Assembly: GCA_041659805.1 (NCBI GenBank)
Contig: JBAZXP010000001.1
Span: 64,589-128,588, forward strand
Origin: Microgenomates group bacterium
Lineage (GTDB): Bacteria > Patescibacteriota > Microgenomatia > Daviesbacterales > UBA10151
Direction: 5' to 3'
DNA: 64,000 bases
Below the pieces are notes generated by a model. The model did no database searches. It was not told the origin of the DNA and saw nothing but the letters and a program-made list of their open reading frames with translations. Below are positions 3,280 to 31,530 of this stretch, piece after piece. Numbering within the stretch: position 1 is the first letter of the stretch; every line of letters starts with the position of its first letter. The position numbers and the translations under genes were made by a program.

Positions 3280-6200
3280 ATGAAAGACTTGCCCAATAAA
3301 CAAACAAAAAAATTCGTTAAAATCGGTGAAGCTTCAGTTAAACTCGGCGTCTCAATTGATACTCTCCGCAGATGGGAAAAGGCAGGTAAAATAGAGATAA
3401 CCAGAACACCAGGTGGTACCAGACTTTACTCAATTTCCACTATTTCAAAACTAACTGAAATACCTAAAAAATATCAAAGAAAAACTGTCGACTATCCAAG
3501 AGTTCCTGTTATTGAACCGGCAAAAATAAAGGTTACGACTGTTGAGGATCTTTTAAACTTAAGCCGACAGGAAACAGAAAAACATCGCCAGACACCGTCA
3601 ACTGATCAAAAATGGCAGGAGTATGTAGATGAAAGAACAGTTAATCCGGTTGAAGTAACTATTTTATCTGAATCAGAGCTACCACAGGCTGTGGCTGAAA
3701 ATCATTCATCAAAAGCCATCAAAACATCATTCCTAGGAAACAAAATTTACAAGTTAACAGCCACAGCTTTTACAGGAACATTAATCATGATAATTCTAGC
3801 TTTTTTAGTTTTAGCCAGAACTTCAAACTTTAATATCTTTAATACAGCTAAAAACAATCAACTCTCAACTGCAAGCCAATCATCATCTACCCTACCTTCT
3901 AATGTTTTGGCTACCTCTACCAGCGGCTGGTATCTGGATTTTGATTCAGATGTAATCATCGAAGGTGACTTGGCTGTTGGTGGAAGCATTAATAAACTAA
4001 CGCTCGCTCCTAATGCAGATGGCTTTAGCATTTCAGGTGGTGATACTGCCAACCGGAAAATGACTGTTATCGGCGGAGATGTAACCTTAGACCAGGATGT
4101 TTCAACAAACGGCTCTCCCAGTTTCCAGGCCTTAGATCTTCCGGCAACATCTAAGCAAATCACTATGGGTGGAGCAGGAACTTTAACATGGACACCCACA
4201 GGCACTCAAACAATTACTTTTCCAAACGCAACAGGCACAGTCCTGCTTGATTCAGCTACTCAAACTATAACAAACAAGACTATTTCCGGTGGGTCTAATA
4301 CTCTTTCTGCTATCCCCAATTCAGCTTTATCCAACAATAAAATTACAATCTCTGCAGGAACTAACCTTTCAGGCGGTGGTGATATTTCTTTAGGCAGTTC
4401 AGGAACTCTTTCTTTAGAGGATGATATTTCCCTGTCCACAGTAACTGCAACATCCTATCTATCTCTAGGTCAAACTAGTGCACCTTCAACCGCAACCGAT
4501 AAACTTTATAATATAGCAGGCTCACTTTACTGGAATGGAACGGATCTTTCTGCTTCTGGTGGCAGCGTTCCTTCAGTTAATGGCTTAATCGGAGCCTTAA
4601 CAATTGCAGGTGGTGGAATTAATTCTGTTTCAGCCCTCGGAACCACTATTACTATAACTGGTACAGAAGCAGATACTTTGGCCAGCGTGACTGCCAGAGG
4701 GGCTACCACAACTGATGCAGTTACATTCTCCTCCACTATTAACTCCAATACTTTTACTTCCACTGCTTTAACCTTTGCAGGTGCTTCCCCTGCCATCTCT
4801 GCTTCCACCGGCGGAACAAGTATTTTTCTTGACGCCGGAACAAGTGGTAAAGTAGTAATCGCCGGAACATCTACAGGGGACGTTGATATTGCCGGCGGAT
4901 CTGGAACCACTGGTTGTACTATTGTTAATGCCACCGGAGATTTGAGCTGTTCCGGAAACATCAGTGGTGGTTCTACAGGAACTGCTGGTTTCTGGGGTAG
5001 GGCTGGTACTACTTTATCTCCAGCAACGGCGGGAGACAACATTACTACAACTGGAGCAATTTCCACAACCGGCACTGGCACTTTATCAATTGCTGGTGCA
5101 GCAACTTTTTCTTCCACTATCAACAGCAATACTTTTACATCCACTGCCCTAACTTTTGCCGGTACCACTCCTATCGTTTCTGCTTCAACTGCAGCTACTG
5201 ATATTTCCTTAAATCCAGGAGCTGGTGGAAATGTACAACTTGCTGGAGGATCTGCTTCATTTGGATGTACAATAAATGACACCACAGGTGATTTAACTTG
5301 TACAGGAGCGATTGCCAGCGGAGGAACAGGAGTGGTTGGATACTGGCAAACAGATGGCGGGTCTCCGCCGACGCTCTCCCCGGCCACGACCGGAGGACAT
5401 ATTACCACTTCAGGTAATATGTATACCTCTGGCACAGGCACAATCACTTCAGGAGGATTACTTACCGGTCAGACCGGTTTAACCGTTTCTGGAGGTGCTA
5501 TTTCTTTAAATGCTTCTTCAAATTATGACACTAATATTAATACTGGTACTTCTACTGGAGCAATTTCTATTGGTAATTCTGCAGCTGGCGCAATATCAAT
5601 GCAATCAGGCGCAGCTTCAACTTTTGCTGCCCCAGCCAATACTGCCACAGCTTTTAGGTTTACTGATGGCACAAATGCATATCTTAACCTTGATACAAGG
5701 AATACTTTATCTGGAGTTTCAGCTTTAACGCTTTCTGCAGGAACCGCCCCAACAATTACATCTGCTTCTAATGCTGAATTTACCACTTTAACCACCACTC
5801 CCCCAACTATCACCTTAACTGGCACTACTCAAGTAACCTCCCAAATGGATTCCATTTTATTTAATGCCCCAACCATCACTGACTCTTCTGCCTTAACAGT
5901 TGATAAAGCTGCATCTGTATCTATTGCAGGCGCACCTGTCTCAGGAGCAACAGGATTAGTCACTCTCACTGACTCCTATGCGCTCAAGGTAAATACAGCT
6001 TCTGTTGATGGTGGAACAGGCACTGTTACAAATTCCTTTGGTATTTCTGTTGACGCACCAACCGGAGCTACTAATAATTATGCTGCCACTTTTAATGGAG
6101 GAAACGTGGGAATTGGAACTACTGCACCTACTGCCCTTCTTTCTGTAGGGGCAACTTCCCAATTCCAGGTTAATTCATCCGGAGCCATAGCTGCCTCAAC

Positions 6201-9200
6201 TGGAATTTCAAACTCTGGAGGTTACACCCAATCCGGAACAACTGCCAATACCTTCACAGGAACTTCTACTTTTTCCAATGCCACTTATTCAGCTTTCTTT
6301 ACAGGAGGTAATGTGGGAATTGGCACTACAGCTCCTATTGGAAGATTGGATGTAACTGATACTTCTAACACAGCTGCTTCCCTATCCTTAACCAATAATA
6401 CAGCTACCACTATTGGAAACGGTGCTAATACTCTGGGGGTAATCGATCTACAATCAACCTCCTTAACTACTGGTAACTTTTTAAATGTAGAACTCAATGC
6501 CTTATCTTCTGGTAAAGGTTTCAACCTAACTTCAACCTCTACCGCTCTTTCATCCGGCTCGCTTGCCTCTTTAGATTGGAGTCCAACAGGTTCTACCACA
6601 ATTTATGCAACAGGCGATCTTTTTAGTATCAATGCTGGCCAATATGGATCTGTTGGTAACTTTTTTAATATCAAAGATAACGGCACATCTGTTTTCTCTA
6701 TTTCCCAACAGGCTTTAACAACTAGCTTGCCAGCTGCTTTTAATGCTCCTGGTGATGTATCCATTGCCTATGATATTAATTTTACTAACCCCACAGCTTC
6801 CTACCTTAAATCTCAAGCCCCACTTTATATAACACCAGGAGAAATTTTTAATTCTTCTGATTTGGTCTTATCTACCTATAATCAAGGCAGCATCATTTTA
6901 AGCAAAGATTTTACATCAACAGCTGCTGTTACTAATTATTTATCCCAAATCAATGGTTCTGATGTAACAGCCATTGCTAATACCAATTATGGTCTGTATT
7001 CTTCAATCACCCACACAGGCAATGCTGCCAAAACTGGTGTTGGATTATATTCCACCCTTTCCACATCCTCAACCACAGCAGATACTTTAATAGCTTCTGA
7101 TTTAGCCACATCCACCTCTGGAATCATGACTACTGGCACCAGAAATATCTATGGTTTGAGATCTCAGCCTGCTTCAACTGGTGCCTCAACTGGAGGAACT
7201 ACCAATGTTTATGGAGGATATCTTAAATCAGGCGGAACAGTCGGAGTGGGCGGAACTATTAATTCTTACGGAATGTATATTGCTAACGGCACCATGAGTA
7301 CTACAGGACTTTCCACCAACACAGGCCTTTATGTCGAATCGCCTACTGGGGCAGATAACAACTATGCAGCTATTTTTGCTGGTGGAAATGTGGGAATAGG
7401 CACAACTGCTCCTGCTGCCCTCTTTTCTGTAGGTTCAACCTCTCAATTTCAGGTTTCTTCTGCTGGAGCAGTTACTGCTGTAGGATTAAATTCAGGCTCA
7501 GGATTATTACAGGGTACTGGTGGTTTAACCCTAACAGGCACAACGCTTTTGAATACCACTGGTACTGCTGCTACCAGTATTGGTAATTCCACAGGAATAC
7601 TAACTTTAGCCTCAGGTGGAACGTCTGCTTGGACAAATACTTCTGGAAACTTAACTATCTCCACAGCTACATCTGGAATTTTAGCCTTAACTTCTGCAGG
7701 AGCTTTGAACCTAACTTCTGGAGCGGCTTCCACCTGGACTCTACCTGCTACTACAGTTAATGCTTTGAATATTGGATCTAATTTATTAACTTTTGATACA
7801 CAAAACTCCAGAATTGGGATTGGGACCACTGCTCCAGGAGCCAATCTAGATGTAGCTGGCAATATTATGCTTTCAGATGGAAATAATGATGCAATTACAT
7901 TCAATAATAGTTATGTACAAATTTATAGGAATGCCAGTATGATGCAATTTAATGCTTATACAGGCTGGGCTTTTTATGATACCCAAGGCTCAGCTGAGAG
8001 AGTCAGAATAACTAATGCAGGTGATGTGGGTATCGGGATAACAGCACCTATAGAGGTATCTGCTGGCAGAACATATCTTTCAATAAAAGGATCTACTGGA
8101 GCTGGAGCTCTGGAATTGTCTACTGCTCAAGCTGATGCAGATGCTGTAACTAATGGAGTTATTCAATTTACTGATGTTAACTCAACAGCAACAGATAAGC
8201 GTACTGCAATAATCCAGTCTTATTTATCAGGAGCAACTGGAAATAATCGCGGAGGCAGATTAGTTTTCAAGACTAAACCTGATGGCGTAGATAGTTTACC
8301 TGACCGCCTTACGATAGAACAAAATGGGAATGTCGGAATTGGTACAACAGCCCCTGCTAGATCTTTGGAAACAACAGGATCAATCAGAATGGGACCATTG
8401 ATTACAGGTGGAGGCTCAGCTGTGGCTATGTACAGAGATGCCAATGGCGATTTGGCAGATTCAACCTCCAGTATTAAGTTTAAAACAGATCTTACAGCTT
8501 ACCCTTCTGTTTTAGAAAAAGTATTGCAACTTAATGCAGTTAACTTTAAATGGAACGAGCTTACTCCTACCCCAGGAGCAAATGATTTTGGAATGATTGC
8601 AGAACAGGTAAATACTATTATTCCTGATTTGGTAATTTATGATGCTGACGGTGTAACACCCCACGGATTAAAGTATGACAAAATGGGGTTTGTTGCCTTA
8701 AAAGCTATCCAGGAACTAAATACTAAAGTTAACAGTTTTAATCTGACATTTGATGAAAATGGCAATGTCATTCTACCTAAAGTTAAAATCGACCAATTAG
8801 TTCTTTCGTCTGATATTCCTGTAAACGGCCAACAACAAAATTATTTCGATGTGGCTGGTAAAATAGCCGAACAAAATGCGGCACTATCTACTCAATCTAC
8901 TGAACTTGCCAAAACACAGTCACAACTTGATGTATTATCTGCCTCTGTTTCTTCTGCTTCAGCCAATCTATCTTCTGCTTCTGCAGAAATTGCTTCAGCC
9001 AGAGAACAAATTTCCTCCACCTCAAGTAGTCTTGCTTCCTTAAGAGAGGAGATCGAAGGATTAAAGCTAACTCCTCCGGAAGTTTTGCTCTCAACAGTCT
9101 CTGCTCAATTAACTGATCTTAATGTCACATCTGAGGCTACCTTCTCAGGAAAACTAACAGCTTATGAAGCAACCATATCTGATACTTTTAAATCTCTGGG

Positions 9201-9627
9201 CAATTCATTCCTGGGTAACACCACTATAGCAGGTGACTTCTCTATTGACGGAACATTATCTCTAACAGGTAGTTCCTTAAGTACAATTGATACCTTATAT
9301 GTTCAAAATAAACCTCTGGCAGGAGATGTTGATTTCTTTAATGGACAAGTCATAATTGATAAAACGGGTAAATTAACTGCTCAAAAAATAGTCTTACCTT
9401 CTGAAGTATTAGGTGAAGCAACTATTCCTGCTAATACCGTAGAAATACCTATCTTCACTACAGCTGTAACAGGTAAATCAAAGATATTCTTAACACCAAG
9501 CTCCTCTACTGGTGGTCAGGCTGTTATCCTTGGAGAAGTCCTCCCTGGTACAGGATTTGTGGCTAAACTAGATCACAGTATAAGTGCAGACATTAAACTT
9601 AATTGGGTAATATTTGATCAACAATAA
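3280..9627 (+). CDS. giant (2115 aa) membrane-anchored surface fibre protein. Domains in order: N-terminal MerR/excisionase-type HTH, single TM helix, Ser/Thr/Gly-rich tail-fibre-like repeats (GNVGIGTTAP motif repeated about 6 times), C-terminal intramolecular chaperone (Peptidase S74) domain, coiled coil.
   Basis: N-terminus KIGEASVKLGVSIDTLRRWEKAGKI is a HTH_17/MerR-like DNA-binding motif. A hydrophobic helix TGTLIMIILAFLVLA lies about 160 aa in. The GGNVGIGTTAP..L.VG motif recurs. The C-terminus SIKFKTDLTAYPSVLEKVLQLNAVNFKW...GMIAEQV..IIPDLV matches the endosialidase-chaperone/S74 consensus. A Ser/Ala-rich coiled coil (LSSASAEIASAREQISS) follows. Confidence 0.75.
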   Translation: MKDLPNKQTKKFVKIGEASVKLGVSIDTLRRWEKAGKIEITRTPGGTRLYSISTISKLTEIPKKYQRKTVDYPRVPVIEPAKIKVTTVEDLLNLSRQETEKHRQTPSTDQKWQEYVDERTVNPVEVTILSESELPQAVAENHSSKAIKTSFLGNKIYKLTATAFTGTLIMIILAFLVLARTSNFNIFNTAKNNQLSTASQSSSTLPSNVLATSTSGWYLDFDSDVIIEGDLAVGGSINKLTLAPNADGFSISGGDTANRKMTVIGGDVTLDQDVSTNGSPSFQALDLPATSKQITMGGAGTLTWTPTGTQTITFPNATGTVLLDSATQTITNKTISGGSNTLSAIPNSALSNNKITISAGTNLSGGGDISLGSSGTLSLEDDISLSTVTATSYLSLGQTSAPSTATDKLYNIAGSLYWNGTDLSASGGSVPSVNGLIGALTIAGGGINSVSALGTTITITGTEADTLASVTARGATTTDAVTFSSTINSNTFTSTALTFAGASPAISASTGGTSIFLDAGTSGKVVIAGTSTGDVDIAGGSGTTGCTIVNATGDLSCSGNISGGSTGTAGFWGRAGTTLSPATAGDNITTTGAISTTGTGTLSIAGAATFSSTINSNTFTSTALTFAGTTPIVSASTAATDISLNPGAGGNVQLAGGSASFGCTINDTTGDLTCTGAIASGGTGVVGYWQTDGGSPPTLSPATTGGHITTSGNMYTSGTGTITSGGLLTGQTGLTVSGGAISLNASSNYDTNINTGTSTGAISIGNSAAGAISMQSGAASTFAAPANTATAFRFTDGTNAYLNLDTRNTLSGVSALTLSAGTAPTITSASNAEFTTLTTTPPTITLTGTTQVTSQMDSILFNAPTITDSSALTVDKAASVSIAGAPVSGATGLVTLTDSYALKVNTASVDGGTGTVTNSFGISVDAPTGATNNYAATFNGGNVGIGTTAPTALLSVGATSQFQVNSSGAIAASTGISNSGGYTQSGTTANTFTGTSTFSNATYSAFFTGGNVGIGTTAPIGRLDVTDTSNTAASLSLTNNTATTIGNGANTLGVIDLQSTSLTTGNFLNVELNALSSGKGFNLTSTSTALSSGSLASLDWSPTGSTTIYATGDLFSINAGQYGSVGNFFNIKDNGTSVFSISQQALTTSLPAAFNAPGDVSIAYDINFTNPTASYLKSQAPLYITPGEIFNSSDLVLSTYNQGSIILSKDFTSTAAVTNYLSQINGSDVTAIANTNYGLYSSITHTGNAAKTGVGLYSTLSTSSTTADTLIASDLATSTSGIMTTGTRNIYGLRSQPASTGASTGGTTNVYGGYLKSGGTVGVGGTINSYGMYIANGTMSTTGLSTNTGLYVESPTGADNNYAAIFAGGNVGIGTTAPAALFSVGSTSQFQVSSAGAVTAVGLNSGSGLLQGTGGLTLTGTTLLNTTGTAATSIGNSTGILTLASGGTSAWTNTSGNLTISTATSGILALTSAGALNLTSGAASTWTLPATTVNALNIGSNLLTFDTQNSRIGIGTTAPGANLDVAGNIMLSDGNNDAITFNNSYVQIYRNASMMQFNAYTGWAFYDTQGSAERVRITNAGDVGIGITAPIEVSAGRTYLSIKGSTGAGALELSTAQADADAVTNGVIQFTDVNSTATDKRTAIIQSYLSGATGNNRGGRLVFKTKPDGVDSLPDRLTIEQNGNVGIGTTAPARSLETTGSIRMGPLITGGGSAVAMYRDANGDLADSTSSIKFKTDLTAYPSVLEKVLQLNAVNFKWNELTPTPGANDFGMIAEQVNTIIPDLVIYDADGVTPHGLKYDKMGFVALKAIQELNTKVNSFNLTFDENGNVILPKVKIDQLVLSSDIPVNGQQQNYFDVAGKIAEQNAALSTQSTELAKTQSQLDVLSASVSSASANLSSASAEIASAREQISSTSSSLASLREEIEGLKLTPPEVLLSTVSAQLTDLNVTSEATFSGKLTAYEATISDTFKSLGNSFLGNTTIAGDFSIDGTLSLTGSSLSTIDTLYVQNKPLAGDVDFFNGQVIIDKTGKLTAQKIVLPSEVLGEATIPANTVEIPIFTTAVTGKSKIFLTPSSSTGGQAVILGEVLPGTGFVAKLDHSISADIKLNWVIFDQQ

Positions 9628-9666
9628 TTTATTGTGATGAAAATTGATAATTATATTTTTTATCTT

Positions 9667-10016
9667 GCGTCTTTGGTGGCAAAGACGCCCAAAGCCACTT
9701 TGACGGGAAGTCGCGCTAAATTCTGTGGCTCACTAGCCGGGGGAAAGCCTCCCCCTCACAATTTCTTTGTGGCATCCCCCTGGCAGTTTCGCCTTGAATT
9801 CTTAACGCGCTTGTTCCTAGTCAAAGAACGAATAGAAGTTTATATATTTTTATTGCCCGCTTGGAATGAAAAGCGTAAAAATCGAACCAAGCCAATATTA
9901 GGGGGAGGTCCGAACCCTTTCGGAGGGGGCAAACTTTCCCCCGATAAATTGGCGAGGAGAGATTAGCTTTTCTTCCGTGGGCAGAGTTTTACCACGCTTT
10001 TGCGGTCAAAAGCGTG
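9667..10016. other. GC-rich structured intergenic element bracketed by two related perfect hairpins (9667-9688: GCGTCTTTG-GTGG-CAAAGACGC; 9993-10016: CACGCTTTTG-CGGT-CAAAAGCGTG). Several internal GGGGG/CCCCC stem-loops. Candidate ncRNA, or MITE-like element and terminator.
   Basis: Palindromes read directly from the sequence. Local GC is much higher than the flanks. The 110-aa ORF called here (9634..9966) has no protein-like composition. Confidence 0.4.
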
Positions 10017-10041
10017 AACAATAAAAATTGAGCTTTAAAAA

Positions 10042-13000
10042 TTGAAAATTATGAGTAAATTAAACAAAAATTTTAGAATAAAGAAAAAACTCTTTTTTAC
10101 TATTTTAGCCCTTTGTATAGGGATAATTGCCTTCTGGAAATTTAGTAATCCTGCTGTTGCTTCCTGGTGGGATGATAATTGGGCTTTTAGAAAATCCATT
10201 GCTATTACTGCCCATACTGCCTCTGAGAATAATGTATATATTAATTTAACAGGGGCAAACGATTTAGATACCTCTGATACCACCAGATTTCAAACTGATT
10301 GTGGAGATTTAAGATTTACCAAGGAGAATGGAGAATTACTCCCCTATTATGTTGTTTCAGGCTGTGGCACAGCTTCTACTGTAGTCCATGTTAATTTTGA
10401 TACTTTCCCAGCAGGAGCACAAACAATCTATGTTTATTATGGTAACTCCTCTGCTGCTGATGGTTTTAATTTAACTGATTTTTCTACAGAAGCTTCCAAC
10501 TACACTATTGGTTCCCAGGGCTCTGAAGAAAAAACACCTGGGATTATTGCTTATTGGCAATTTGATGAAGGACAAGGTATTTCTGTTAAGGACTCCTCTC
10601 CTAATTCTGCTAATGCCACGCTTGCCGCAGGAGACGGAACTGCACCTACAGGTACGACTAATCCTACTTATAATAGTTCTACAGGCGCTCCTGATACGGG
10701 AGATGGGGCTGACGGAGCTTGTACTGTTTCCTCTGATACCAATATCAACACAGCTTCTTGTGCTGGCAGAGGCACAGCTGATGCTATTAATTTTTCTTCT
10801 ACTGTTGATACCAGTGCAGCTTCTACCTCTATCAAACTCTCTGCAACATCCACAGGTTTAGCTGTCGGCGATGAGATATTAATTATTAACTTAAAAGGAA
10901 CTGCAGCAGTTCCTTCAGATGCAGGAGAATTTGAAACTAAAACTATTACTTCAATTACTACTACCACTAATCCGGATGACACTTTAAACTTTGCCAGTGG
11001 TTTAACAAATGCTTATGCAGGCACCACCCAAAAAATTATGGTTCAGAGGGTTCCAAATTATACAACTGTCACAGTCAATAGTGGCCAAACTATGACTGCA
11101 GCTGCCTTTGATGGGACAAAAAACGGGGTAATCTTTTTTAGGGCAACCGGAGCAGTAACTGTCACAGGTTCTATCAGTATGAGCGGTAAGGGCTTTACTG
11201 GTGGAGCAGCTCAAACTGCACATGTTAGTAAAGGTGGCAATGGCGGTACAACCTATAATGGCACTGGTGGAAACGGTGGAAATGCAGCCGTGAATGGTAC
11301 GAGTGGTCAAGGAGGTGGTGGAGGTGCAGGTGCTTTATGCCAGGCATCCGATAAAAACGGCTGTTACCAATGGGCTACCGGAGGAACTGGTACAACTGGA
11401 GGCGCAGGAGGTGGTGGTGGAGGCCATTATTCTGCTGCAGGGGGTGGAGGTGGATATGGAACAATCGGCACTGGAGGAGGCAGTTATGATGGAAATTATA
11501 ACGGCTCCCCAGGATCAGGCACTACTGGTGGTAATGGTGCCAGCTCTAATAGTAATAATATCGCTGGTGGTGGAGGTGGAGGTGGTACTTATGGAACTGC
11601 TACTTTAAGTACCTTATTTATGGGAAGTGGAGGCGCTAGCGGTGCAACTTATAGTCAAGCTGGCGATAGTGGCGCAGGAGGAGCTGGAGGCGGAATTATC
11701 TCAATTAACGGTGCAACTATAACAATAACAGGGAGTGTTGTCAGTAATGGTGCTGCTGGAGGTAATGGGGTTAATGATAATGCTTCCGGTGGTGGTGGCG
11801 CCGGTGGTTCAGTTGCTATTAATGGTTTGACAATTGCCTTAGGCTCATCTCTAGTGACAGCTACAGGAGGTGGAGGTGGGACTGTCTGGACTACAGGAGG
11901 AGCTGGAGGAGATGGACGAATAGCAGTTGGCTCTGGCGGTAATAGTCCTACCTGGAAATCAGAGGAATGGTGTATTTCGGGCAAGTGTCTATTTTTTGAT
12001 GGTACATCCTCAAATATTAAAGTTGCAAATGCTATAAATGGAATCCAAACAATCTCTATGTGGGTTAAACCCACTTCCCTCACCACTGGCGCCTTAATTG
12101 ATCTTGACGGCGGTACACATAAAATAACCTTTTCCAATGGAACTCTTTCTACCTCTGGCTTTACCGGTACTACAACCTTTTATGTTAATGGTAAAGTCTC
12201 CTCCACTTTAACCATTGATACCTGGCAATATGTTACAGTAACCACAACGAATGGTTTCAACAGCACTTCCTCTCTAACAATTGCTAAATCAAGCTCAACT
12301 TATTTACAGGGTTTTATTGATGATGTCAAAATATATAACTATGCCAAGACTGCAGCTCAAATTGCTACTGACTTACAAAAAGTTCAATCAAATATGGGTT
12401 CTGGCGAAGTTTTGGGTAACAAGCTAATTGATCCTCTATCTACAGGTTTGCTTGGTTATTGGAAAATGGATGAACTATCAGGCACAACCACAGTTTCAGA
12501 TTCTTACAGAAGCCACACAGGAACCTCTACTTCCAGCACCAATGTCACAACAGGCAAATTTGGCAATGCCAGAAGCTTTAATGGCAGCCAATATATTTCT
12601 GTTACTCACAACTCCAGTTTAAGCCCGTCTGCTATCACCATCTCTGCCTGGGTTTATACCACTTCCCAACCAGGAGTCGGCACCTCATATCAGTTTGTGG
12701 AAAAAAGCGCAAATGACAGTTACCGTTACAGGGTTAATGCCGGAGGAACTATTGGTGTATTTGATCAGGGCTGTGGTATTAGCTGTCTATCTTCACCCGG
12801 TAATATTCCATTAAATCAATGGAATCATGTAGTCTATACAGGTGACTCAACGGGCTTAAAAATGTATCTGAACGGTTCTTTGGTTGCCAGTAATTCTACA
12901 GCTTATAGTGGTGGGGCTGCCAACACCAATAATTTATTAATTGGGGGCTCTTATTTTGGCACTGCTGAGTATATGATTGGGAACATTGATGAGGTCAGGC

Positions 13001-15891
13001 TTTATAACAGATCTCTTTCTGCCACAGAAGTAACAGCCCTTTATAACTGGACACCACAGGCAAATGAAGCCCCAGGACCAGTGGGAGCCTGGGATTTTGA
13101 GGAAGCTACCGGAACAACACTTATTGATAACTCAACCAATGGTTATAACGGAACATGGTCAGGCACAGCCAGCCACTACACAACAGGAAAATATGGCAAG
13201 GCAGGTAATTTTAATAGCGCCACGGTCGACTATGTCGATATGGGTGATGTTTTAGATGCAAACACAACAAACAAAATTACTCTTGAGGCTTGGATAAAAA
13301 CGCCCTCTCCAACAGATAATTTTCCAATGATTGTTACAAAATCTGGGGCTTCTGATAACGGATACGAATTCCGTTTTAATTCTACAAACGGAAAACTCCA
13401 GGTTATATATGGAGGAACTACACCAACTAATTTAGTTGGTAATACCGTCTTAGCTGCAAATACTTGGTATCATGTTACAACTACCTATGATGGAGTAACT
13501 GCTAAAATTTATCTTAACGGTGTTTTAGATAATTCAGTGGCTATGACTGGAACTATTACTGCCAATACTGAACATTTACTTATCGGAGCTCGATATGAAA
13601 GCGGTACTCCAGCATATTTTTATACAGGTCAAATTGATGCTGTCAGAATTTATGATTATGCCAGGTCCGCTAGCCAGATTGTTTCTGATATGAATGCAGG
13701 GCATCCTGCTGTTGGCTCCCCTATTGGATCTGCTGTGGGATATTGGAAATTTGATGAAGGGGCAGATAATAGATGCTCTGCTGGAGTAAATGATGCTTGT
13801 AATTCAGGTTCAGGAGGCAATGCTTTAGATGGAGCAGAATCTAACATGGCTGTTCCTGCAACAACTGCATCAGGCTGGACTAATTCAGGTAAATTCAATA
13901 AAGCAATGATTTTTGATGGATCAGATGATCAAATCCAAATTACTGAAACAGCTCCCCTTCGATTTACAACCTCTACTCCTTATTCTTTCTCCTCTTGGGT
14001 CAAACTGGATTCTATCCCTGCTGCAAATGGCTATGAAATTATTGGTAATCGTGCTTGTGCGGTCAGGACTGCCATTTTTGTAAATACTGCCGGTAAAATT
14101 GACTTTAATATCGATGCCACATCCGGAGGAAGTACTGACCCTCTTTCTACAACAGTGCTAACAACAGGTGCCTGGTATCATATTGTCGGTACTTATGACG
14201 GGACAACAGCAAAAGTTTATGTTAATGGAAAACAGGAAGGGTCTCAAGCTATACAGGGCTCAGGAAATATTTATGCAGGTAACCCTTATTTTATTGGCGG
14301 CAGTACTTATACTTGTGGAACGTCCCAAAACTGGCATCTTGATGGCACTATTGATGAGGTTAAAATTTATAATTATGCCTTAACTGCTGATGAGGTTAAG
14401 GCAGATTTTAACAGAGGTCAAAGTCTACAGTTAGGTGGTGGTGGGAATAATTCCACTTATCAACCACAAGCTGCTAATCAGGAATATTGTGTACCTGGGG
14501 ATACCACCTCCTGTGCTGCTCCTGTGGGAGAATGGAAAATGGAAGAAGGCACAGGTCAAACTACTGCTGACACATCTAGTAATGGAAATACCGGAACTTT
14601 TGGAGTTAACTCTGGAGTTAGCACTGATGATCCCATCTGGGCCAAAGGTAAAATTGGCAAAGCTACAAGTTTTGACGGAAGCAATGATTATATTAGTGTC
14701 GCTCATAGTTCTAACCTGACGCCAACAGGAGATTATACATTACAAGCCTGGATCAAAACTTCCTCTACAAACAACCATCAACCAGTTATAGCAAAATTCA
14801 ACGCAACTAATCCTTATCCAGGATATATCTTATCAATTGGTGATTATGCCTCAGCTACTGGCAAAGTGTCACTTTGGGTTGGTGATTGGGCTAGCAGCTA
14901 TTTTAATGGTAATACCTCTGTAAATGATGGCAACTGGCACCATATCGTAGGGGTTTTAAATGGTACAGCAGTCAGAATCTATGTTGATGGAAAACTTGAT
15001 AATAGCGGGACCAGAAGCCCTTCAAGGGCTAATACCCAGGGTTTAACTATTGGCACCAGATATGATAATGGTGGTGTCCTTCCCTGGTTTTTTAACGGTT
15101 CAATAGATCAGGTTCGTGTTTATAATTATGCCAGAACAGCTGCTCAGATAGCCTGGGATTATAATAAAGGCAAGCCTATTGGACATTGGAAACTTGATGA
15201 ATGCCAAGGAAATCAGGCATATGATTCCTCAGGAAATTCTAATACTGGAACCATTACCATTGGAGCTTCTGGAGAAAACACTTTAGGCACCTGCTCTATC
15301 TCTTCCACTGCCTGGGGAGACGGGGCAACAGGCAAAAGAAATGCTTCTTTAAAATTTGACGGAACAGATGATATTTTAAGCGTTGCTTCAATGCCACTGG
15401 CCTGGACTTCTACCACCCCCTTTTCTTATGGAGGCTGGATGAAATTTGCCAATACCACCACAGGTTACATACTCTCATCAAGTGTTTCTCCTGGAGCAGG
15501 AAACCTCTTAACAGACATCAACAAAGATGCATATACTTCAGGTAGGGTAACTTTTGAGGTAGGTAAATCAGGAACAGGTTTTACCCATATAGAGTCTTCA
15601 ATCCCTTATGTCACAGGCTCTTGGGAACACTATTTTGTTACCTATAACGGTGCTAATAATATGAAATTATACCGTAACGGAATTCAAGTTTCCTCTGGCA
15701 CGTATACAAACGGCTCCGCAGCTAGTAACGGTAACGGCTTTTATATGATGTATGCCAATAATTCTACAAACTATGTAAATGGCCAACTGGATGATGTTAA
15801 AGTATTTAATTATGCCCTCACAGCTACCCAGGTCAAGGATATCTACAATGGTGGAGCCATTTTCTACGGCCCAACCACAGGCAGCCCTTAA
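10042..15891 (+). CDS. giant (1949 aa) secreted/anchored protein. Domains in order: signal-anchor, DUF2341-like N-terminal domain (WWDDNWAFRK..I.I), Gly-rich region, six tandem LamG_3 (concanavalin A-like lectin) domains.
   Basis: N-terminal hydrophobic segment. The WW..W.(F/Y)RK..I motif is characteristic of DUF2341. Long GGxGG tracts. Six repeats end in the LamG_3 signature (IDEVRLYNRSLSATEV, IDAVRIYDYARSASQI, IDEVKIYNYALTADEV, IDQVRVYNYARTAAQI, LDDVKVFNYALTATQV, IDDVKIYNYAKTAAQI), each preceded by FDG.DD.I.V and W.H(V/I)..TYDG blocks. A TTG start at 10042 or an ATG at 10051 are both possible. Confidence 0.75.
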   Translation: MKIMSKLNKNFRIKKKLFFTILALCIGIIAFWKFSNPAVASWWDDNWAFRKSIAITAHTASENNVYINLTGANDLDTSDTTRFQTDCGDLRFTKENGELLPYYVVSGCGTASTVVHVNFDTFPAGAQTIYVYYGNSSAADGFNLTDFSTEASNYTIGSQGSEEKTPGIIAYWQFDEGQGISVKDSSPNSANATLAAGDGTAPTGTTNPTYNSSTGAPDTGDGADGACTVSSDTNINTASCAGRGTADAINFSSTVDTSAASTSIKLSATSTGLAVGDEILIINLKGTAAVPSDAGEFETKTITSITTTTNPDDTLNFASGLTNAYAGTTQKIMVQRVPNYTTVTVNSGQTMTAAAFDGTKNGVIFFRATGAVTVTGSISMSGKGFTGGAAQTAHVSKGGNGGTTYNGTGGNGGNAAVNGTSGQGGGGGAGALCQASDKNGCYQWATGGTGTTGGAGGGGGGHYSAAGGGGGYGTIGTGGGSYDGNYNGSPGSGTTGGNGASSNSNNIAGGGGGGGTYGTATLSTLFMGSGGASGATYSQAGDSGAGGAGGGIISINGATITITGSVVSNGAAGGNGVNDNASGGGGAGGSVAINGLTIALGSSLVTATGGGGGTVWTTGGAGGDGRIAVGSGGNSPTWKSEEWCISGKCLFFDGTSSNIKVANAINGIQTISMWVKPTSLTTGALIDLDGGTHKITFSNGTLSTSGFTGTTTFYVNGKVSSTLTIDTWQYVTVTTTNGFNSTSSLTIAKSSSTYLQGFIDDVKIYNYAKTAAQIATDLQKVQSNMGSGEVLGNKLIDPLSTGLLGYWKMDELSGTTTVSDSYRSHTGTSTSSTNVTTGKFGNARSFNGSQYISVTHNSSLSPSAITISAWVYTTSQPGVGTSYQFVEKSANDSYRYRVNAGGTIGVFDQGCGISCLSSPGNIPLNQWNHVVYTGDSTGLKMYLNGSLVASNSTAYSGGAANTNNLLIGGSYFGTAEYMIGNIDEVRLYNRSLSATEVTALYNWTPQANEAPGPVGAWDFEEATGTTLIDNSTNGYNGTWSGTASHYTTGKYGKAGNFNSATVDYVDMGDVLDANTTNKITLEAWIKTPSPTDNFPMIVTKSGASDNGYEFRFNSTNGKLQVIYGGTTPTNLVGNTVLAANTWYHVTTTYDGVTAKIYLNGVLDNSVAMTGTITANTEHLLIGARYESGTPAYFYTGQIDAVRIYDYARSASQIVSDMNAGHPAVGSPIGSAVGYWKFDEGADNRCSAGVNDACNSGSGGNALDGAESNMAVPATTASGWTNSGKFNKAMIFDGSDDQIQITETAPLRFTTSTPYSFSSWVKLDSIPAANGYEIIGNRACAVRTAIFVNTAGKIDFNIDATSGGSTDPLSTTVLTTGAWYHIVGTYDGTTAKVYVNGKQEGSQAIQGSGNIYAGNPYFIGGSTYTCGTSQNWHLDGTIDEVKIYNYALTADEVKADFNRGQSLQLGGGGNNSTYQPQAANQEYCVPGDTTSCAAPVGEWKMEEGTGQTTADTSSNGNTGTFGVNSGVSTDDPIWAKGKIGKATSFDGSNDYISVAHSSNLTPTGDYTLQAWIKTSSTNNHQPVIAKFNATNPYPGYILSIGDYASATGKVSLWVGDWASSYFNGNTSVNDGNWHHIVGVLNGTAVRIYVDGKLDNSGTRSPSRANTQGLTIGTRYDNGGVLPWFFNGSIDQVRVYNYARTAAQIAWDYNKGKPIGHWKLDECQGNQAYDSSGNSNTGTITIGASGENTLGTCSISSTAWGDGATGKRNASLKFDGTDDILSVASMPLAWTSTTPFSYGGWMKFANTTTGYILSSSVSPGAGNLLTDINKDAYTSGRVTFEVGKSGTGFTHIESSIPYVTGSWEHYFVTYNGANNMKLYRNGIQVSSGTYTNGSAASNGNGFYMMYANNSTNYVNGQLDDVKVFNYALTATQVKDIYNGGAIFYGPTTGSP

Positions 15892-15892: not shown

Positions 15893-16558
15893 ATGAATAA
15901 AGACCAGGAAGAAGTTATTAAAGCAGCTATTGCCCAAACCATGAGGGAACTTACTGCTCCTAAAAAACCCTTACAAGGGTCACGGGTTTGGAAAGACCCT
16001 GAAGGTTATCAATACTTGGCTGTCTGGCAAAATGCTGCCCTCTTAAGGGTTCTTATCCGTAAATTTACCCTTAATCTTACCCTTAACCACCCTTTTGAAA
16101 AACGCTTAAAAGCCCAGCTGGATGATGCAGCCAGATCTCAAAAAAGAAACATCGAAGAAGGCTGGAAAAGACCAACCACCTCTGAATATCTAAATTTCTT
16201 AGGCTTTGCCCAGGGCTCTTTGGAAGAAGTTAAGGGTGATGTTAGGGACGCCAAAACAGATGGGTTTTTAAGGGTAAAAGAAGGGTCGTGTTTAAAAGAT
16301 TTAGGGATAGACTTAACTATCTATAAGGGAGCTGCTAAGGGAATGGCCAAGGGTGAGCCCACAGATCCAGGTCACCCTTACTACCAACCCTTATCTACCC
16401 TTAATCCCAAAACCCTTACCTATGAGATGTTTATGGAGCTAATAAATAAAACAGATTATTTACTAAGATCTCTGGTTCAGTCTTTGGAAAAGAAACTAAG
16501 AGAAGATCAAAAAGGCTACAAAATAGAACAGGAAAGAATCAAAGAAAAATTTAAATAA
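15893..16558 (+). CDS. four-helix-bundle protein of the 23S rRNA intervening-sequence protein family
   Basis: NIEEGWKRPTTSEYLNFLGFAQGSLEEVKGDVRDAKTDGFL matches the conserved NIAEG..R.s..e...FL.iA.GSl.E core of IVS proteins. ATG at 15893 lies just after the upstream stop. The ORF-track start at 15779 overlaps the giant gene and is unlikely. Confidence 0.55.
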   Translation: MNKDQEEVIKAAIAQTMRELTAPKKPLQGSRVWKDPEGYQYLAVWQNAALLRVLIRKFTLNLTLNHPFEKRLKAQLDDAARSQKRNIEEGWKRPTTSEYLNFLGFAQGSLEEVKGDVRDAKTDGFLRVKEGSCLKDLGIDLTIYKGAAKGMAKGEPTDPGHPYYQPLSTLNPKTLTYEMFMELINKTDYLLRSLVQSLEKKLREDQKGYKIEQERIKEKFK

Positions 16559-19175
16559 ATTTTATAGAAGATAAAATTGTATCCAGCTTTTGCATGTTTT
16601 TATCCCCCACAGGAGAAACCTTGAGATGAAGAATGCTTTTTTGTTGTGAGAGTACAAATTCTAAGGTCTGTATGCCCTGAGAATCCACCCAAAAGGCTGC
16701 TGTTGCCTCAAACCCTGGTATCTGAGCCAACCCTTTTTTATCCAGCTTTCCTGGAAATTTAAGCAGACTTGTAGCTACCCAATCATCAGGTTTCCCTGCA
16801 AAAGACCCACCATAAAAACTAATAGTAAATTCGCTGTCTGGAACAGAAAGAGTAGCTACTTTACCTTTTTCTGTTATCTTCCAATCTCCAGGGTACTTAA
16901 AAGAAAATCCTTGTTTCTTTTGTTCAAACGTTTTCCAATCAGAAGCTATATTACTGGATAATTCCTGTCCTGTAATTTTTGCTAACTCATTTTGAGCCTC
17001 TTGCTTTATTTGAGGATTAATATCTCCAGCACCTATCACAAATTGTAACTGTTTTTTCGCCTCTTCTACTTGCCCACCAGCTAAATATGCTTTTGCCAAA
17101 TTTAATCTAACCTCAAAGCTTCCTGGCTCTAAATCTACAGCTTCCTTAAAGTATTTTATGCTAGATATCATATCTCCTTTGTTGGCGGCAAATATGGCCA
17201 TACGATTAGCAACTTCCACAGAAAAAGGAGAAATTGCATAAGCTTTTAAGATATATTCTTCTGCTTTTTTCAAAGCAAGAGATTGATCTTCTTTTGTAGG
17301 TGCACTTTGGGCAACACCAAGCAAATAATCCTCCATGGCAATATAGCTCATCCCATATTCTTGTAATAACAAATGATAAGCAGCATTGTAATTTCTTTCC
17401 AAATAGAATGGTTTATGTTCAAAAAATTTTGGATCCTTAAATTTATATGCAAATGAATCATCAGATGGAGTTAACAAATCATCTGCAGTCAGCATTCTGA
17501 ATGAAAGTCCACTAATTACAGGTTTGAGTAATTTAGGATCAAGCTTAAATTTACCTGCATCAGTTCCAGCCAAAACCGTTTCACGAAACACCATTGGGGT
17601 GACATAAACCGGATGTCCGTGATCAATCAGCCATTTGATATACCAGTTCATCACTTCGTTATACTCTTCCAATCTATCCTTTTTGATCATTCCTTCCAAC
17701 TCTTTGGGCATTAAATCAGGTCTATGGGTACGCAAATTATCACGATACCAGGGCAAAATGTACCACATATTGGCAACAACAGGAAAAACATCAGGCCGAT
17801 TTTTTATAACATCATATTCGTAAAAAGAAAGAGAGTTAAAGAAGTCACCGGAGCCTATAAGAACAGCCCCTTTGGGTAAGTTTGAGTATAAATTGTCTGC
17901 ATACTCTGAGGTGGTAATATGGGCACTTCTGTCTAATTTTGGCAACCACCAAAGGAAAGGAACAAGCACCAAAACAAATAGAATAAAGAATATAGATTTA
18001 GGATTTAAGAATTTTTGTTTTAGAGACAATAATATTTTGATTAAAAGACTAAGACCTATACCGATAAAAATAGTGAATATGACATAACTGGCAATAAACC
18101 AGCTTTCCTGATTCCCGGAAAGATATAATCCCCCAAAGATCAGGTTAGTGATTGGAACTGAGATTAGCATCAAAAATAATCTCCAATTTTTTCGCAGTAA
18201 ATAGTAACCCCCAATTAAAATTAAGGGCACTAAGAGAGGTGTAAATTGTAAAAACAGTAAGTAGAAGTACCTACCAACTGATTTGGCGAAAATTTGTGGC
18301 GAACCTGTAAAGCCATTGATGGAATTTGTTCTGGGATCATTGATATCCAATCCTTCCCCTTTTAAATGTCCCCAAAAAAGTTCCGGTGTTTGGGGATCAC
18401 CCCAATTTATAAATGGATGTTGCAAGGCTCTGATGGGCAAATAAGCATATACCAGCGCAGTTAGTCCAAGCACAATTGCTACAACTAAAATAAATCTCTT
18501 AATCCTTACTTTTTTCCAGAGAAAAATTCCTGCAATGAGTAGTGCAGGGATAGATTGAACAATTGTGGGATTTGTGCCTGTAGCCAGTCCTAAAATAACT
18601 GCCCCTAAAATTAAACGTTTGGTAGATATTTTGCCTGATTCAGGAATCAACATCACCAACCCTAAAAGGGATATCATCATTAAATTAGTTAAAATATAGC
18701 TTTCTGTGTTTAGAGTTTGAGACCAAAATTGATAGGAAAAACCTAAAATTAAGGTTGCAGTAAGGCTGATTGCCTGGATTATCGGGGTGGATAATTTGGG
18801 TATATTTTTAAAATAGCCTGTAAATAAATTTTTATCCTCTCTACCCTCTTTCACAAACCAAAAATTATTGCTGATTAATCTAAATAGTAAAAAATAAACC
18901 CAGGTTAAAACTCCCAATGCTGCAAGAACAGACAAAAGCTGCATTCTAAAAAGCACTGAACCAAACGGTATTTTAGTAAATAAGTGCCCAATCATCACAT
19001 AAAAAGGAAATCCCGGTGGATTTGGGATACCTGGCTCAAATGCTGCAGCAATCATAGTACCTGCATCAATATAAAGAATAGAGGGAGCCAGTGTTTTGAT
19101 ATATATAAATCCACAAAACAACCAAATAACTAACAAAAAAGGTAAATGAGGGAAAATAGGGCGAATATTTTTCAC
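16551..19175 (-). CDS. DUF2723 / TMEM260-like GT-C-fold membrane glycosyltransferase with C-terminal TPR repeats and a C-terminal beta domain
   Basis: 874 aa. N-terminus PSILYIDAGTMIAAAFEPGIPNPPGFPFYVMIGHLF matches the DUF2723 signature (..D.GEF..AA..LGI.HPPGYPL). More than 10 predicted TM helices. TPR-like AYHLLLQEYGMSYIAMEDY and KAYLAGGQVEEAKKQL segments. C-terminal domain shared with the next gene. Confidence 0.6.
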   Translation of the reverse strand: MKNIRPIFPHLPFLLVIWLFCGFIYIKTLAPSILYIDAGTMIAAAFEPGIPNPPGFPFYVMIGHLFTKIPFGSVLFRMQLLSVLAALGVLTWVYFLLFRLISNNFWFVKEGREDKNLFTGYFKNIPKLSTPIIQAISLTATLILGFSYQFWSQTLNTESYILTNLMMISLLGLVMLIPESGKISTKRLILGAVILGLATGTNPTIVQSIPALLIAGIFLWKKVRIKRFILVVAIVLGLTALVYAYLPIRALQHPFINWGDPQTPELFWGHLKGEGLDINDPRTNSINGFTGSPQIFAKSVGRYFYLLFLQFTPLLVPLILIGGYYLLRKNWRLFLMLISVPITNLIFGGLYLSGNQESWFIASYVIFTIFIGIGLSLLIKILLSLKQKFLNPKSIFFILFVLVLVPFLWWLPKLDRSAHITTSEYADNLYSNLPKGAVLIGSGDFFNSLSFYEYDVIKNRPDVFPVVANMWYILPWYRDNLRTHRPDLMPKELEGMIKKDRLEEYNEVMNWYIKWLIDHGHPVYVTPMVFRETVLAGTDAGKFKLDPKLLKPVISGLSFRMLTADDLLTPSDDSFAYKFKDPKFFEHKPFYLERNYNAAYHLLLQEYGMSYIAMEDYLLGVAQSAPTKEDQSLALKKAEEYILKAYAISPFSVEVANRMAIFAANKGDMISSIKYFKEAVDLEPGSFEVRLNLAKAYLAGGQVEEAKKQLQFVIGAGDINPQIKQEAQNELAKITGQELSSNIASDWKTFEQKKQGFSFKYPGDWKITEKGKVATLSVPDSEFTISFYGGSFAGKPDDWVATSLLKFPGKLDKKGLAQIPGFEATAAFWVDSQGIQTLEFVLSQQKSILHLKVSPVGDKNMQKLDTILSSIKFI

Positions 19176-19184
19176 TTATTAATC

Positions 19185-22603: not shown

Positions 22604-22659
22604 CTCTTAAATCTTATTTCTTAAATCTTAAATCTGCTTTATTATTATATACTTAACAA

Positions 22660-25668: not shown

Positions 25669-26847
25669 TCAAGGCACACAACCATTGCCATTATTATATA
25701 AAGCAGCTATTTCAGAAGGAGAAAGAGCTCTATTATAAACCCTCACATCTTCAATAGGACCATTAAAATATGTAGTTCCACCTATTTTAAAAGTACCTGT
25801 TGAATGGGTCCCAATACCAGTAGTCCAATTACCATATCCTGGCGTGGTAGCATCCACTCCATTTTTATAAATTTTCATTTGATTTGAGCCATTATAAGTT
25901 GCCACTAAATGAACCCACTCATTTATGTTTAGAGTACCATTACCCCTTGCTTCACCAACACCATTATTATAAATATGAAAAGAGTAGCCTCCAGTAACTG
26001 TTGCAGTACTCCAAATATGAATAGCGTAGCCTCCCCGATCGGTTCCACTAACATATCTTTCTTTGTGCAAAGACCGTGTATAACCATTAACTGGCGGGAG
26101 ACCGAGAGGTTTCATCCAAATAGAAATACTAATAGGGTTTAACCCTTCGATATTTAAACTGGGAACAGTCGTTGTTGATTGTACAACCTTACTGATTCCA
26201 TCAAAATCACCCATTCTTCCAAAACCAGCTTTTTCACTGACTAGGGTGTTTGCAGCACCATATGCTCTTAAATTATTACCCTGACCAGAAGAATCAATAA
26301 CATCATTGCTAGTCCCATTCCAAGAAGCCTCATCTAATTTCCAATATCCCACCAACCCTGAAGTTAATATTCCATAAGGATCACAGGAAGGATTAGATCC
26401 ACCATATCCACCACCACTACCTCCTCCACCTCCCTCAGATAAAGAAGAGCCTTGGGTAGAAGAAGAACAAAAACAAGTGCTGGAGTTTGAGTAACAAGGA
26501 GCACTCTGGTTATCCCCCAGGGAAGCACAGTAAGCTACTCTGTCTGTTGCTTGAGTAATACAACTTGTTTCTGGTCCTACCAAACAAGGGTAATTATTTC
26601 CTTCTGGGGTTTTGGGGATTTTCCCTGCAGCAAAATCTGTAGTAGCTAAAGCTGAATAAGATCCAGCAGAAGAATATTTAACTTCATAAGCTTTAGAGAT
26701 AGCATTTAAGTCTGCTTTTCTTTGAGCATCTCTGGCAGAAGTAGTTACATTTCTAAAAACAGTCACCCCTACCACTGCTAAAATAGCAATAATAGCCACA
26801 ACAACTAGAAATTCTACCAGAGTGAAGCCTTTAATTTTTCCCTTCAT
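25669..26847 (-). CDS. type IV pilin-like protein (prepilin N-terminal methylation motif) with Cys-rich middle region and C-terminal LamG_3 lectin domain
   Basis: N-terminus MKGKIKGFTLVEFLVVVAIIAILA is a class III signal / prepilin cleavage motif (G|FTLVE). C-terminus GYWKLDE...FDG...W.HLVATYNGSNQMKIYKNGVD...IEDVRVYNRALSPSEIAALYN matches the LamG_3 signature. Confidence 0.7.
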   Translation of the reverse strand: MKGKIKGFTLVEFLVVVAIIAILAVVGVTVFRNVTTSARDAQRKADLNAISKAYEVKYSSAGSYSALATTDFAAGKIPKTPEGNNYPCLVGPETSCITQATDRVAYCASLGDNQSAPCYSNSSTCFCSSSTQGSSLSEGGGGGSGGGYGGSNPSCDPYGILTSGLVGYWKLDEASWNGTSNDVIDSSGQGNNLRAYGAANTLVSEKAGFGRMGDFDGISKVVQSTTTVPSLNIEGLNPISISIWMKPLGLPPVNGYTRSLHKERYVSGTDRGGYAIHIWSTATVTGGYSFHIYNNGVGEARGNGTLNINEWVHLVATYNGSNQMKIYKNGVDATTPGYGNWTTGIGTHSTGTFKIGGTTYFNGPIEDVRVYNRALSPSEIAALYNNGNGCVP

Positions 26848-27624: not shown

Positions 27625-27631
27625 ATGATAT

Positions 27632-27748
27632 TCCGGCAATGACATATTGTCCCGGGGCCTTTCGACCCTAGTATCGTCGGCGCTGCAATCTTTGACTGCT
27701 GAGTTCGGGATGGGATCAGGTCGTTCGGTTGCGCTCAAATCACCGGAC
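27632..27748 (-). rRNA. rrf: 5S ribosomal RNA
   Basis: Reverse complement reads TCCGGTGATTTGAGCGCAACCGAACGACCTGATCCCATCCCGAACTCAGCAGTCAAAG...AGCGCCGACGATACTAGGGTCGAAAGGCCCCGGGACAATATGTCATTGCCGGA. Conserved CCCATCCCGAACTCAG and AGCGCCGA.G.TACT blocks with helix I pairing. Confidence 0.8.
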
Positions 27749-31455: not shown

Positions 31456-31496
31456 GAGGTGCCGAACGATACCGTCCTTGTGGACTGTTGGGTATC

Positions 31497-31530
<34 letters not shown>

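Follow-up and report, generated by a model that had tools for sequence, protein, structure and literature searches.

Bacteria of the Candidate Phyla Radiation (CPR) are thought to live attached to other microbes and, to our knowledge, the means of this attachment are almost unknown outside a few cultured Saccharibacteria. In Saccharibacteria, type IV pili drive host association (PMC9894109), and the pilin PilX1 of Nanosynbacter lyticus bears a jelly-roll, lectin-like domain (PMC11623550). Modular pilins are widespread, CPR included (PMC8179133), and lectin modules of the concanavalin A (ConA) type on minor pilins provide glycan binding at the pilus tip (PMC9934059, PMC8179133), the ConA-like module on PilC of S. 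sanguinis doing so within a pilus tip complex (PMC9934059). A laminin G (LamG)-like domain also ends TafC, the tip adhesin of haloarchaeal fimbriae exported by the twin-arginine (Tat) route, where it stands at the filament tip (NF052521; PMC11821415), and giant proteins with a DUF2341 domain have been noted earlier in Patescibacteria (PMC11809585). Here, we describe two genes in a 64,000-nucleotide (nt) stretch of a Microgenomates group bacterium (assembly GCA_041659805.1, contig JBAZXP010000001.1, positions 64,589 to 128,588), hereafter the window, which an initial annotation had joined into one adhesion system: a giant gene at 10051..15891 (+), hereafter the giant, that combines a DUF2341 domain with an array of LamG domains, and a gene at 25669..26847 (-) for a modular type IV pilin of 392 amino acids (aa) that carries a single LamG domain. 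In the reading that we favour, and hold to be probable though well short of certain, the giant is a Sec-exported LamG-array protein with a module nested in its first LamG domain, the pilin is an independent lectin pilin, and the two form no dedicated pair.

The comparison with the described systems is instructive for both proteins. Like PilC and PilX1, the window pilin has a class III signal with Glu5, a short head, a flexible linker and a C-terminal ConA-like jelly-roll, and it belongs to this already described and experimentally characterised class of modular lectin pilins. Unlike PilC, it has no immunoglobulin-like middle module, is an orphan gene within the window and shows no detectable sequence similarity to the solved PilC chains, its pilin N-terminus alone matching solved pilins; moreover, glycan binding and tip location have been shown by experiment for PilC only and are putative for the window pilin. 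The giant matches the TafC profile NF052521 in its LamG part only (positions 145-362 of 373, E 1.4e-61, 208.6 bits against a cut-off of 410) and, unlike TafC, has neither a Tat signal nor a pilin-like donor-strand domain. Its closest company is a stereotyped and already named CPR family with a signal peptide, a DUF2341 domain and six to seven LamG domains in about 1550 aa, of which the giant is a member.

Our results correct the pairing of these two conspicuous genes, place the giant in a widespread family whose LamG positions are individually conserved, and identify a giant fibre gene as a recurrent neighbour of the DUF2341-LamG family. Both proteins were already named at NCBI by their domains, and the new points are structural only: a domain-within-a-domain insertion and a large Gly-rich family (about 2300 representatives) that has neither a Pfam model nor a solved structure. 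No new mechanism is revealed; the giant and the pilin are sensible adhesin candidates for binding studies.

Architecture of the giant and its nested module

The open reading frame (ORF) 10042..15891 (+) is unbroken and counts 1949 codons from the TTG at which the mechanical ORF begins; in the public record the protein begins at the ATG at 10051 and has 1946 aa, and this identical sequence bears the accession MFA5932493.1 ('DUF2341 domain-containing protein [Microgenomates group bacterium]') on a contig of 1,130,263 bp. At its N-terminus (10051..10161) lies a Sec-type and not a class III signal peptide, with a basic n-region, a 16-aa hydrophobic core and a putative cleavage site between AVA and S, and an AxA directly before the motif W[WF][DN]xxWx[YF]R is conserved across the homologues. 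This N-terminus is likely a cleavable Sec signal, and the giant would be an exported protein. No C-terminal anchor was recognised in it. The protein had been called a giant anchored protein, of which the first adjective stands and the second is doubtful, given the resemblance to a cleavable signal and the absence of a C-terminal anchor.

The DUF2341-containing N-terminal domain (WWDDNWAFRK ... YVYYGN, 10165..10536) matches PF10102 at aa 86-141 with 37.7 bits against a gathering cut-off of 23.4. Most of the aligned CPR homologues share 55-74% identity with it, the two most divergent 25-32%, and 11 residues are invariant in the alignment. Laminin_G_3 (PF13385) matches the giant in 7 stretches with 489.2 bits against a gathering cut-off of 27.6. 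Six start motifs of the form [YWAEH]W.[FML][DE]E (aa 171, 806, 1016, 1234, 1497 and 1715) pair with six end signatures of the I/L-D-x-V-K/R-I/V/L-Y/F-N/D type (aa 759, 982, 1198, 1437, 1688 and 1916). Both families proposed in the initial annotation are borne out by profiles above the Pfam cut-offs, and the number of six LamG domains by the motifs.

The proposed order of the domains, DUF2341 followed by poly-Gly and then by six tandem LamG domains, does not hold: the first LamG start (aa 171) precedes the Gly-rich region and the corresponding end (aa 759) follows it. LamG1 is split, at about aa 200-636, by an inserted module of about 430 aa, a domain within a domain, as three independent tests agree in showing. 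The first used a LamG hidden Markov model (HMM) trained without the LamG1 domain, in which aa 160-215 matched HMM positions 7-51 (30.1 bits) and aa 631-790 matched positions 55-220 (48.4 bits), while a chimera of the joined N- and C-terminal pieces covered positions 8-220 with 75.7 bits, the scores being additive. The second was the alignment of insert-less homologues, in which LamG follows DUF2341 directly and which span the junction with one gap of about 430 aa. The third was collinearity with Daviesbacteria GCA_028687915.1, which has two tandem genes of the family, for proteins of 1562 aa (protein A) and 1597 aa (protein B). Both have the same number and order of LamG domains as the giant and are collinear with it throughout, except for the Gly-rich module, which sits in LamG1 of the giant and which they lack. 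By BLAST, aa 3-192 of the giant are 71% identical to aa 5-190 of protein A, and aa 634-1946 are 40% identical to its aa 193-1562; protein B shows the same pattern, with 63% and 38%. LamG1 is contiguous in the insert-less orthologues, and this family layout, an intact LamG1 straight after DUF2341, is not found in the window giant. For the junction we relied on the BLAST segments and set aside a global MAFFT alignment of the three sequences (the giant with proteins A and B), in which LamG1 was spread out over the insert.

The N-terminal piece of LamG1 (YWQFDEGQG...DSSPNSANATL, its first strands) occupies 10537..10638, the insert 10639..11949 and the C-terminal piece 11950..12375, each LamG piece being an HMM match. 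The isolated 56-aa N-terminal piece had no Pfam match and was resolved by our local HMM. The five other domains follow at 12439..13047 (LamG2, a Pfam match with start and end motifs), 13069..13695 (LamG3, which holds the best Pfam stretch, aa 1062-1213), 13723..14412 (LamG4), 14512..15165 (LamG5) and 15166..15861 (LamG6), the last three being Pfam matches as well.

The six domains are mutually 23-39% identical, and the only DNA repeats inside the gene are matches of 60-83% at conserved LamG motifs, so the array is not a recent amplification. In addition, LamG3 to LamG6 each have their own positional orthologue in protein A, which scores 124-188 bits, compared with 44-90 for pairs of unlike position (LamG3, 135 bits against 52-69 at other positions; LamG4, 188; LamG5, 129; LamG6, 124). 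The array is evidently old, to judge from this position-by-position orthology with another genus, for which bit scores are given for positions 3 to 6.

A single-sequence AlphaFold2 model of aa 40-800 reached a predicted local distance difference test score (pLDDT) of 33.7 and was superseded by a model of aa 150-790 built on a 75-sequence alignment, with a pLDDT of 84.6 and a predicted template modelling score of 0.73. The insert is its most confident part, mostly at pLDDT 85-98, and the C-terminal piece of LamG1 is modelled at 60-97. What had been called a long poly-Gly region is neither a linker nor a spacer of low complexity; it is a conserved, folded domain of about 430 aa that is confidently modelled. 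Foldseek matched the model of aa 150-790 to carbohydrate-binding domain 4 of AbnA and to the clostridial neurotoxin lectin-like (HCN) domains over about 190 columns; the Foldseek output carried no query coordinates, and we assigned these matches to the C-terminal part of LamG1. A jelly-roll beta-sandwich fold is thus supported for LamG1 only, the one LamG domain modelled. By sequence, too, AbnA, an arabinanase, is among the solved proteins nearest to the LamG domains of the giant, through one of its carbohydrate-binding domains, and so is a protein with an S-layer domain.

The insert itself matches, with E 2e-14, the NCBIfam model of the AgmC N-terminal domain (NF047640, gliding_AgmC_N), AgmC being a gliding protein of Myxococcus. 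The insert spans nearly the whole profile (positions 28-399 of 412), but is nested in a LamG domain here, and its 53.4 bits lie below the curated cut-off of 275. It is best described, by profile comparison, as a distant homologue of the AgmC N-terminal domain and is neither AgmC nor an equivalog; no function for that domain was found in the literature searched. Among 1.84 billion cluster representatives, the module had 2280 matches at E<=1e-3, of which 966 reached E<=1e-10. Many of the proteins that bear it are giant (up to 7116 aa), some have up to 9 matching stretches, and in the first homologue set it stood after ordinary signal peptides, prepilin signals or MerR-type helix-turn-helix (HTH)/transmembrane N-termini, or at the extreme N-terminus. 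The module circulates among giant surface proteins of CPR bacteria, Planctomycetes, Myxococcales and some viruses. Its position within LamG1 is common only to the giant and two database proteins, P0121 (66-70% identical, depending on the region) and P0122 (56-60%), and is a lineage-specific variant.

Could the giant be an enzyme acting on a host or envelope polysaccharide, with the insert as a depolymerase or the ConA-like domains as glucanases? Foldseek on the insert returned weak matches to phage tailspike beta-helices and depolymerases and to a capsule lyase (E about 6e-4 to 3e-3, template modelling score about 0.12), and the superfamily name of the ConA-like domains includes glucanases. 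These matches are, however, marginal, as a beta-solenoid shape of a generic kind would produce them. Pfam and NCBIfam matched no family of glycoside hydrolases or lyases in the giant, and the PF13385 domains of solved relatives bind and do not catalyse. We regard an enzymatic role as very unlikely. Predicted folds similar to that of the insert also occur in prasinovirus, phage and giant-virus proteins. Neither Pfam nor PHROGs had a model matching the insert, PHROGs likewise had none for the DUF2341 region, and sequence and profile searches of the PDB gave no relatives of the insert or of the N-terminal domain of the giant.

The pilin and its relation to the giant

That the gene at 25669..26847 encodes a type IV pilin-like protein with a LamG_3 domain, as first annotated, was confirmed by prepilin profiles (PF07963, 28.3 bits against a cut-off of 21.2; TIGR02532, 26.6 bits against 16.3) and by PF13385 (80.5 bits, E 1.8e-22). 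Its class III signal consists of the leader MKGKIKG, short, basic and ending in Gly, followed by FTLVEFLVVVAIIAILAVVG, with F at +1, Glu at +5 and a hydrophobic alpha1N helix. The head is small and Cys-rich (aa 1-138), residues 4-130 match solved PilA pilins, a Gly linker, GGGGGSGGGYGG, covers aa 139-150, and the LamG_3 module occupies aa 161-392 (nt 25672-26367), with the Laminin_G_3 match at aa 226-381. Full-length orthologues of the same architecture are 41-49% identical, and their LamG part, at 32-41%, is less conserved than the whole protein; the fusion of pilin and LamG appears from these orthologues to be an old, conserved family. On another CPR contig (L005), two pilin-LamG paralogues are immediately followed by genes for a two-component system, PilB, PilC and minor pilins. 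The LamG module of the window pilin is most likely displayed on a pilus and probably at its tip, as for S. sanguinis PilC. In the 64-kb window, a Pfam scan of ORFs of 100 aa or more, and with them almost every candidate gene, showed no pilus machinery (PilB, PilC or PilD).

The initial annotation held that giant and pilin form one adhesion system in which the same lectin module is shown in two ways through recent domain shuffling. Several facts are in keeping with this: PF13385 with the same C-terminal signature occurs in both proteins, the genes lie about 10 kb apart (the end of the pilin gene is 9.8 kb from the stop of the giant), and both gene types are also found on one Daviesbacteria contig. 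However, the LamG domains tell otherwise. Between the pilin LamG and the six domains of the giant, identity runs from 26.6 to 29.8%, and aligned pairwise, as a check on recent shuffling, they show no special relatedness. When the pilin LamG was used as a BLAST query against 141 LamG-bearing proteins from other organisms plus the domains of the giant, the latter ranked 69, 86, 116, 132, 136 and 139; in the reverse ranking, the pilin came 28th to 112th for each domain of the giant. The initial annotation had itself named such an outcome, with pilin and giant no closer than other family members, as one that would refute it. No DNA repeats of at least 60 nt, direct or inverted, link the two genes. 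They are on opposite strands, and between them, on mixed strands, are genes for GT-C-type glycosyltransferases with tetratricopeptide (TPR) repeats, a YfhO-like protein and ribosomal protein S1. In the same Daviesbacteria genome, a glycosyltransferase, S1 and the pilin orthologue are found more than 20 kb further on from the DUF2341-LamG genes, and since the order there is alike, the proximity of giant and pilin goes with the gene order of related genomes.

The comparative context likewise gives no support to the proposed pair. We fetched 75 loci encoding the DUF2341 subfamily from 185,579 species genomes, with flanks of 10 kb on either side. A pilin+LamG gene lay within these flanks in 0/75 loci, a count to be read knowing that, past a gene for 1550 aa, only some 5 kb of flank are left and that 15 kb separate the DUF2341 domain and the pilin here. 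The two proteins have a domain superfamily in common and not a module; there is no sign of a dedicated pair, and both architectures, as far as their orthologues tell, are old and evolved separately. A single system that shares one module is therefore highly improbable.

A different link to pili has been put forward for the domain itself. In archaea, type IV pilus loci were found by Makarova et al. to encode large DUF2341 proteins, for which these authors suggested a role at the tip (PMC4858521), a pilus accessory role that is echoed in the COG name of DUF2341 (PMC11809585). By extension, the DUF2341 protein of the window would belong to a type IV pilus without being a pilin, as an accessory protein or tip adhesin comparable to PilY1, and this idea draws on the archaeal loci as well as on the occurrence of the same DUF2341 subfamily in DPANN archaea. 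The evidence in and around our gene points elsewhere, as PilB/PilC occurred within 10 kb of the DUF2341 gene in 1/75 loci and a prepilin-motif ORF in 1/75, the window lacks pilus machinery among its Pfam-scanned ORFs, the signal of the giant is of Sec type, and no PilY1/PilC beta-propeller domain was matched in it by Pfam or NCBIfam. We consider a pilus accessory role unlikely.

Based on these results, we return to our preferred reading of an exported LamG-array giant beside an independent lectin pilin. A lectin-like role in surface binding, as the initial annotation suggested, remains a reasonable functional class for both genes; it is the host-recognition pair that falls. Both proteins are plausible surface binders, independently of each other, with putative ligand binding. 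The giant would act as a multivalent binding protein at the cell surface with six non-identical binding modules, its possible targets being glycans or proteins, whether of a host, of a partner cell or of the organism's own envelope, and it could work together with the upstream fibre described below; the Gly-rich module of about 430 aa has been spliced into the first loop of LamG1 in this lineage.

The DUF2341-LamG family and its gene neighbours

The 75 loci come from CPR bacteria and also from DPANN archaea, the latter at 34-41% identity. ORFs with DUF2341 plus LamG are present in 51/75, the complete ones mostly of 1500-1650 aa with 6-7 LamG domains and often in tandem. The archaeal loci (L056-L081) include Aenigmatarchaeota, Nanoclepta, Woesearchaeota, Pacearchaeota and Undinarchaeota. 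Their DUF2341 domains have in common with those of CPR bacteria a W..W.YR start, an invariant C46/D48/F51 and an IY.YYG motif, and the archaeal proteins are usually without LamG domains. The subfamily is thus common to both major groups of ultra-small episymbionts, CPR and DPANN.

In the window, the giant is the middle gene of a same-strand run. Upstream lies a gene for a fibre-like protein of 2115 aa (3280..9627, +), with Pfam matches to MerR (aa 14-50) and Peptidase_S74 (aa 1730-1785), one transmembrane helix (about aa 160-185) and a coiled-coil tail. Its HTH is of the MerR/excisionase type and cytoplasmic, a very long stretch rich in Gly, Ser and Thr is extracellular, and the S74 domain is of the endosialidase chaperone kind. 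Such a design points to a surface fibre joined to a transcription factor that is tethered to the membrane; the same HTH-transmembrane-fibre design occurs in P0181 and P0201, both of which have the Gly-rich module. A homologue of the fibre gene stands directly upstream, on the same strand, in 13/46 evaluable CPR loci (phmmer); with BLAST, 24 loci had fibre homologues, and long ORFs next to the DUF2341 genes formed a cluster that extends over 25 loci. The fibre gene is the most often conserved neighbour of the DUF2341-LamG genes, and an S74 protein is also encoded upstream of the Daviesbacteria DUF2341-LamG orthologue. In that genome, the order is S74 fibre, DUF2341-LamG, four-helix bundle, DUF2341-LamG, and a protein with DUF2341 and the Gly-rich module. 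ORFs of about 330 aa were present in 15 loci, a representative of which weakly matches WxLIP_PGBD, a peptidoglycan-binding domain, at 26.4 bits against a cut-off of 27.3.

Downstream, 1 nt past the stop of the giant, begins the gene at 15893..16558 (+), deposited as 'four helix bundle protein', which matches PF05635 (23S_rRNA_IVP/Avd-like; Pfam E 6.9e-13). A homologous gene also lies 3' of the Daviesbacteria orthologue, and such genes occur in 6-7 of the 75 loci. An adjoining Avd-like gene brings to mind diversity-generating retroelements, of which the giant would be the variable target; besides the tight spacing and its conservation in Daviesbacteria, the gene at the same position there also has a precomputed match to PF22296 (bAvd). 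We rejected this explanation, which is scarcely credible, as neither a reverse transcriptase nor template/variable repeats were found in the window: no Pfam reverse-transcriptase domain was present in the scanned ORFs of at least 100 aa, there is no template/variable-repeat pair, and the DNA repeats of the giant gene are confined to the 60-83% matches at LamG motifs.

The trio of fibre, giant and four-helix bundle, or parts of it, recurs in other CPR genomes. A bolder interpretation would make of this cassette a host-attachment apparatus, independent of pili and specific to ultra-small episymbionts, in which the DUF2341 domain would dock the lectin array onto the fibre, the cytoplasmic MerR-type HTH of the fibre would couple surface contact to transcription in this genome, and the nested Gly-rich module would add binding surface. 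We judge such an apparatus distinctly unlikely.

The fibre and giant genes are separated by a spacer of about 420 nt (9628-10050; core 9664-9976) that looks like a mobile element of the MITE (miniature inverted-repeat transposable element) type. It is an imperfect inverted repeat, in which 9860-9976 matches a model of 9664-9834 on the opposite strand, and its folding is stable (minimum free energy -152 against -112 kcal/mol for shuffled sequence, z = -6.8). Over its initial 53 nt, the spacer shares 98% identity with a Daviesbacteria site located 160 nt downstream of the 23S rRNA gene there, and copies of the spacer are present in four metagenome contigs, three of them within one 13-kb stretch. 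No Rfam family matched 9628-10050. The element was probably inserted here, because the orthologous gene junctions in relatives are without it. A 110-aa ORF at 9634..9966 was rejected as a gene, having no family match and lying inside this repeat, and an RNase P-like reading of the intergenic RNA was rejected on helix topology.

Several observations weigh against our preferred reading of the exported array and the independent pilin, and temper the confidence we place in it. The N-terminal strands of LamG1 are modelled at a pLDDT of 44-53, a low confidence, and the nested topology consequently rests on the sequence evidence. LamG_3 domains are not always lectins, and to favour glycan over protein binding is an assumption. 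If cleaved at its signal, the giant has no recognisable anchor by which it would stay on the cell. As for a partnership with the fibre, the fibre gene is absent upstream in most loci, and co-transcription of fibre and giant is uncertain owing to the MITE-like element between them.

Other features of the window

The window has the hallmarks of CPR genomes, with unlinked 16S, 23S and 5S genes and a group I intron in the 23S gene. The latter (30629-34429, -) is 3801 nt long against a model of 2925 nt and has at least one group I intron (32117-32376); the 16S and 5S genes and a free-standing ORF resembling a LAGLIDADG endonuclease, which overlaps tRNA-Cys at its end, account for 42234-43625 (-), 27631-27747 (-) and 39869-40663 (+).

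The genes at 16551-24459 form a membrane glycosyltransferase-like cluster that includes a TMEM260-like O-mannosyltransferase with TPR repeats and a YfhO-like protein. Within it, the tandem TPR paralogues 19185-21110 and 21107-22603 have an 84-nt segment in common that is 92% identical, and the order of the cluster is conserved beside S1 and the pilin in Daviesbacteria. The cluster could perhaps glycosylate the nearby Ser/Thr-rich surface proteins.

Further along, a two-gene cassette is present as a tandem duplicate at 47160-49713 and 49775-52412 (+), with 72-87% DNA identity. Each copy encodes a protein of about 310-330 aa without a Pfam match, then one of about 540 aa in which the thrombospondin type 1 repeat, a domain rare in bacteria, occurs three times, and LysM proteins flank the pair. 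Finally, a second and smaller S74 protein of 505 aa (57966-59483, +; Peptidase_S74 E 4.4e-18) has a C-terminal coiled coil, and with it the genome encodes several tail-fibre-like surface proteins.

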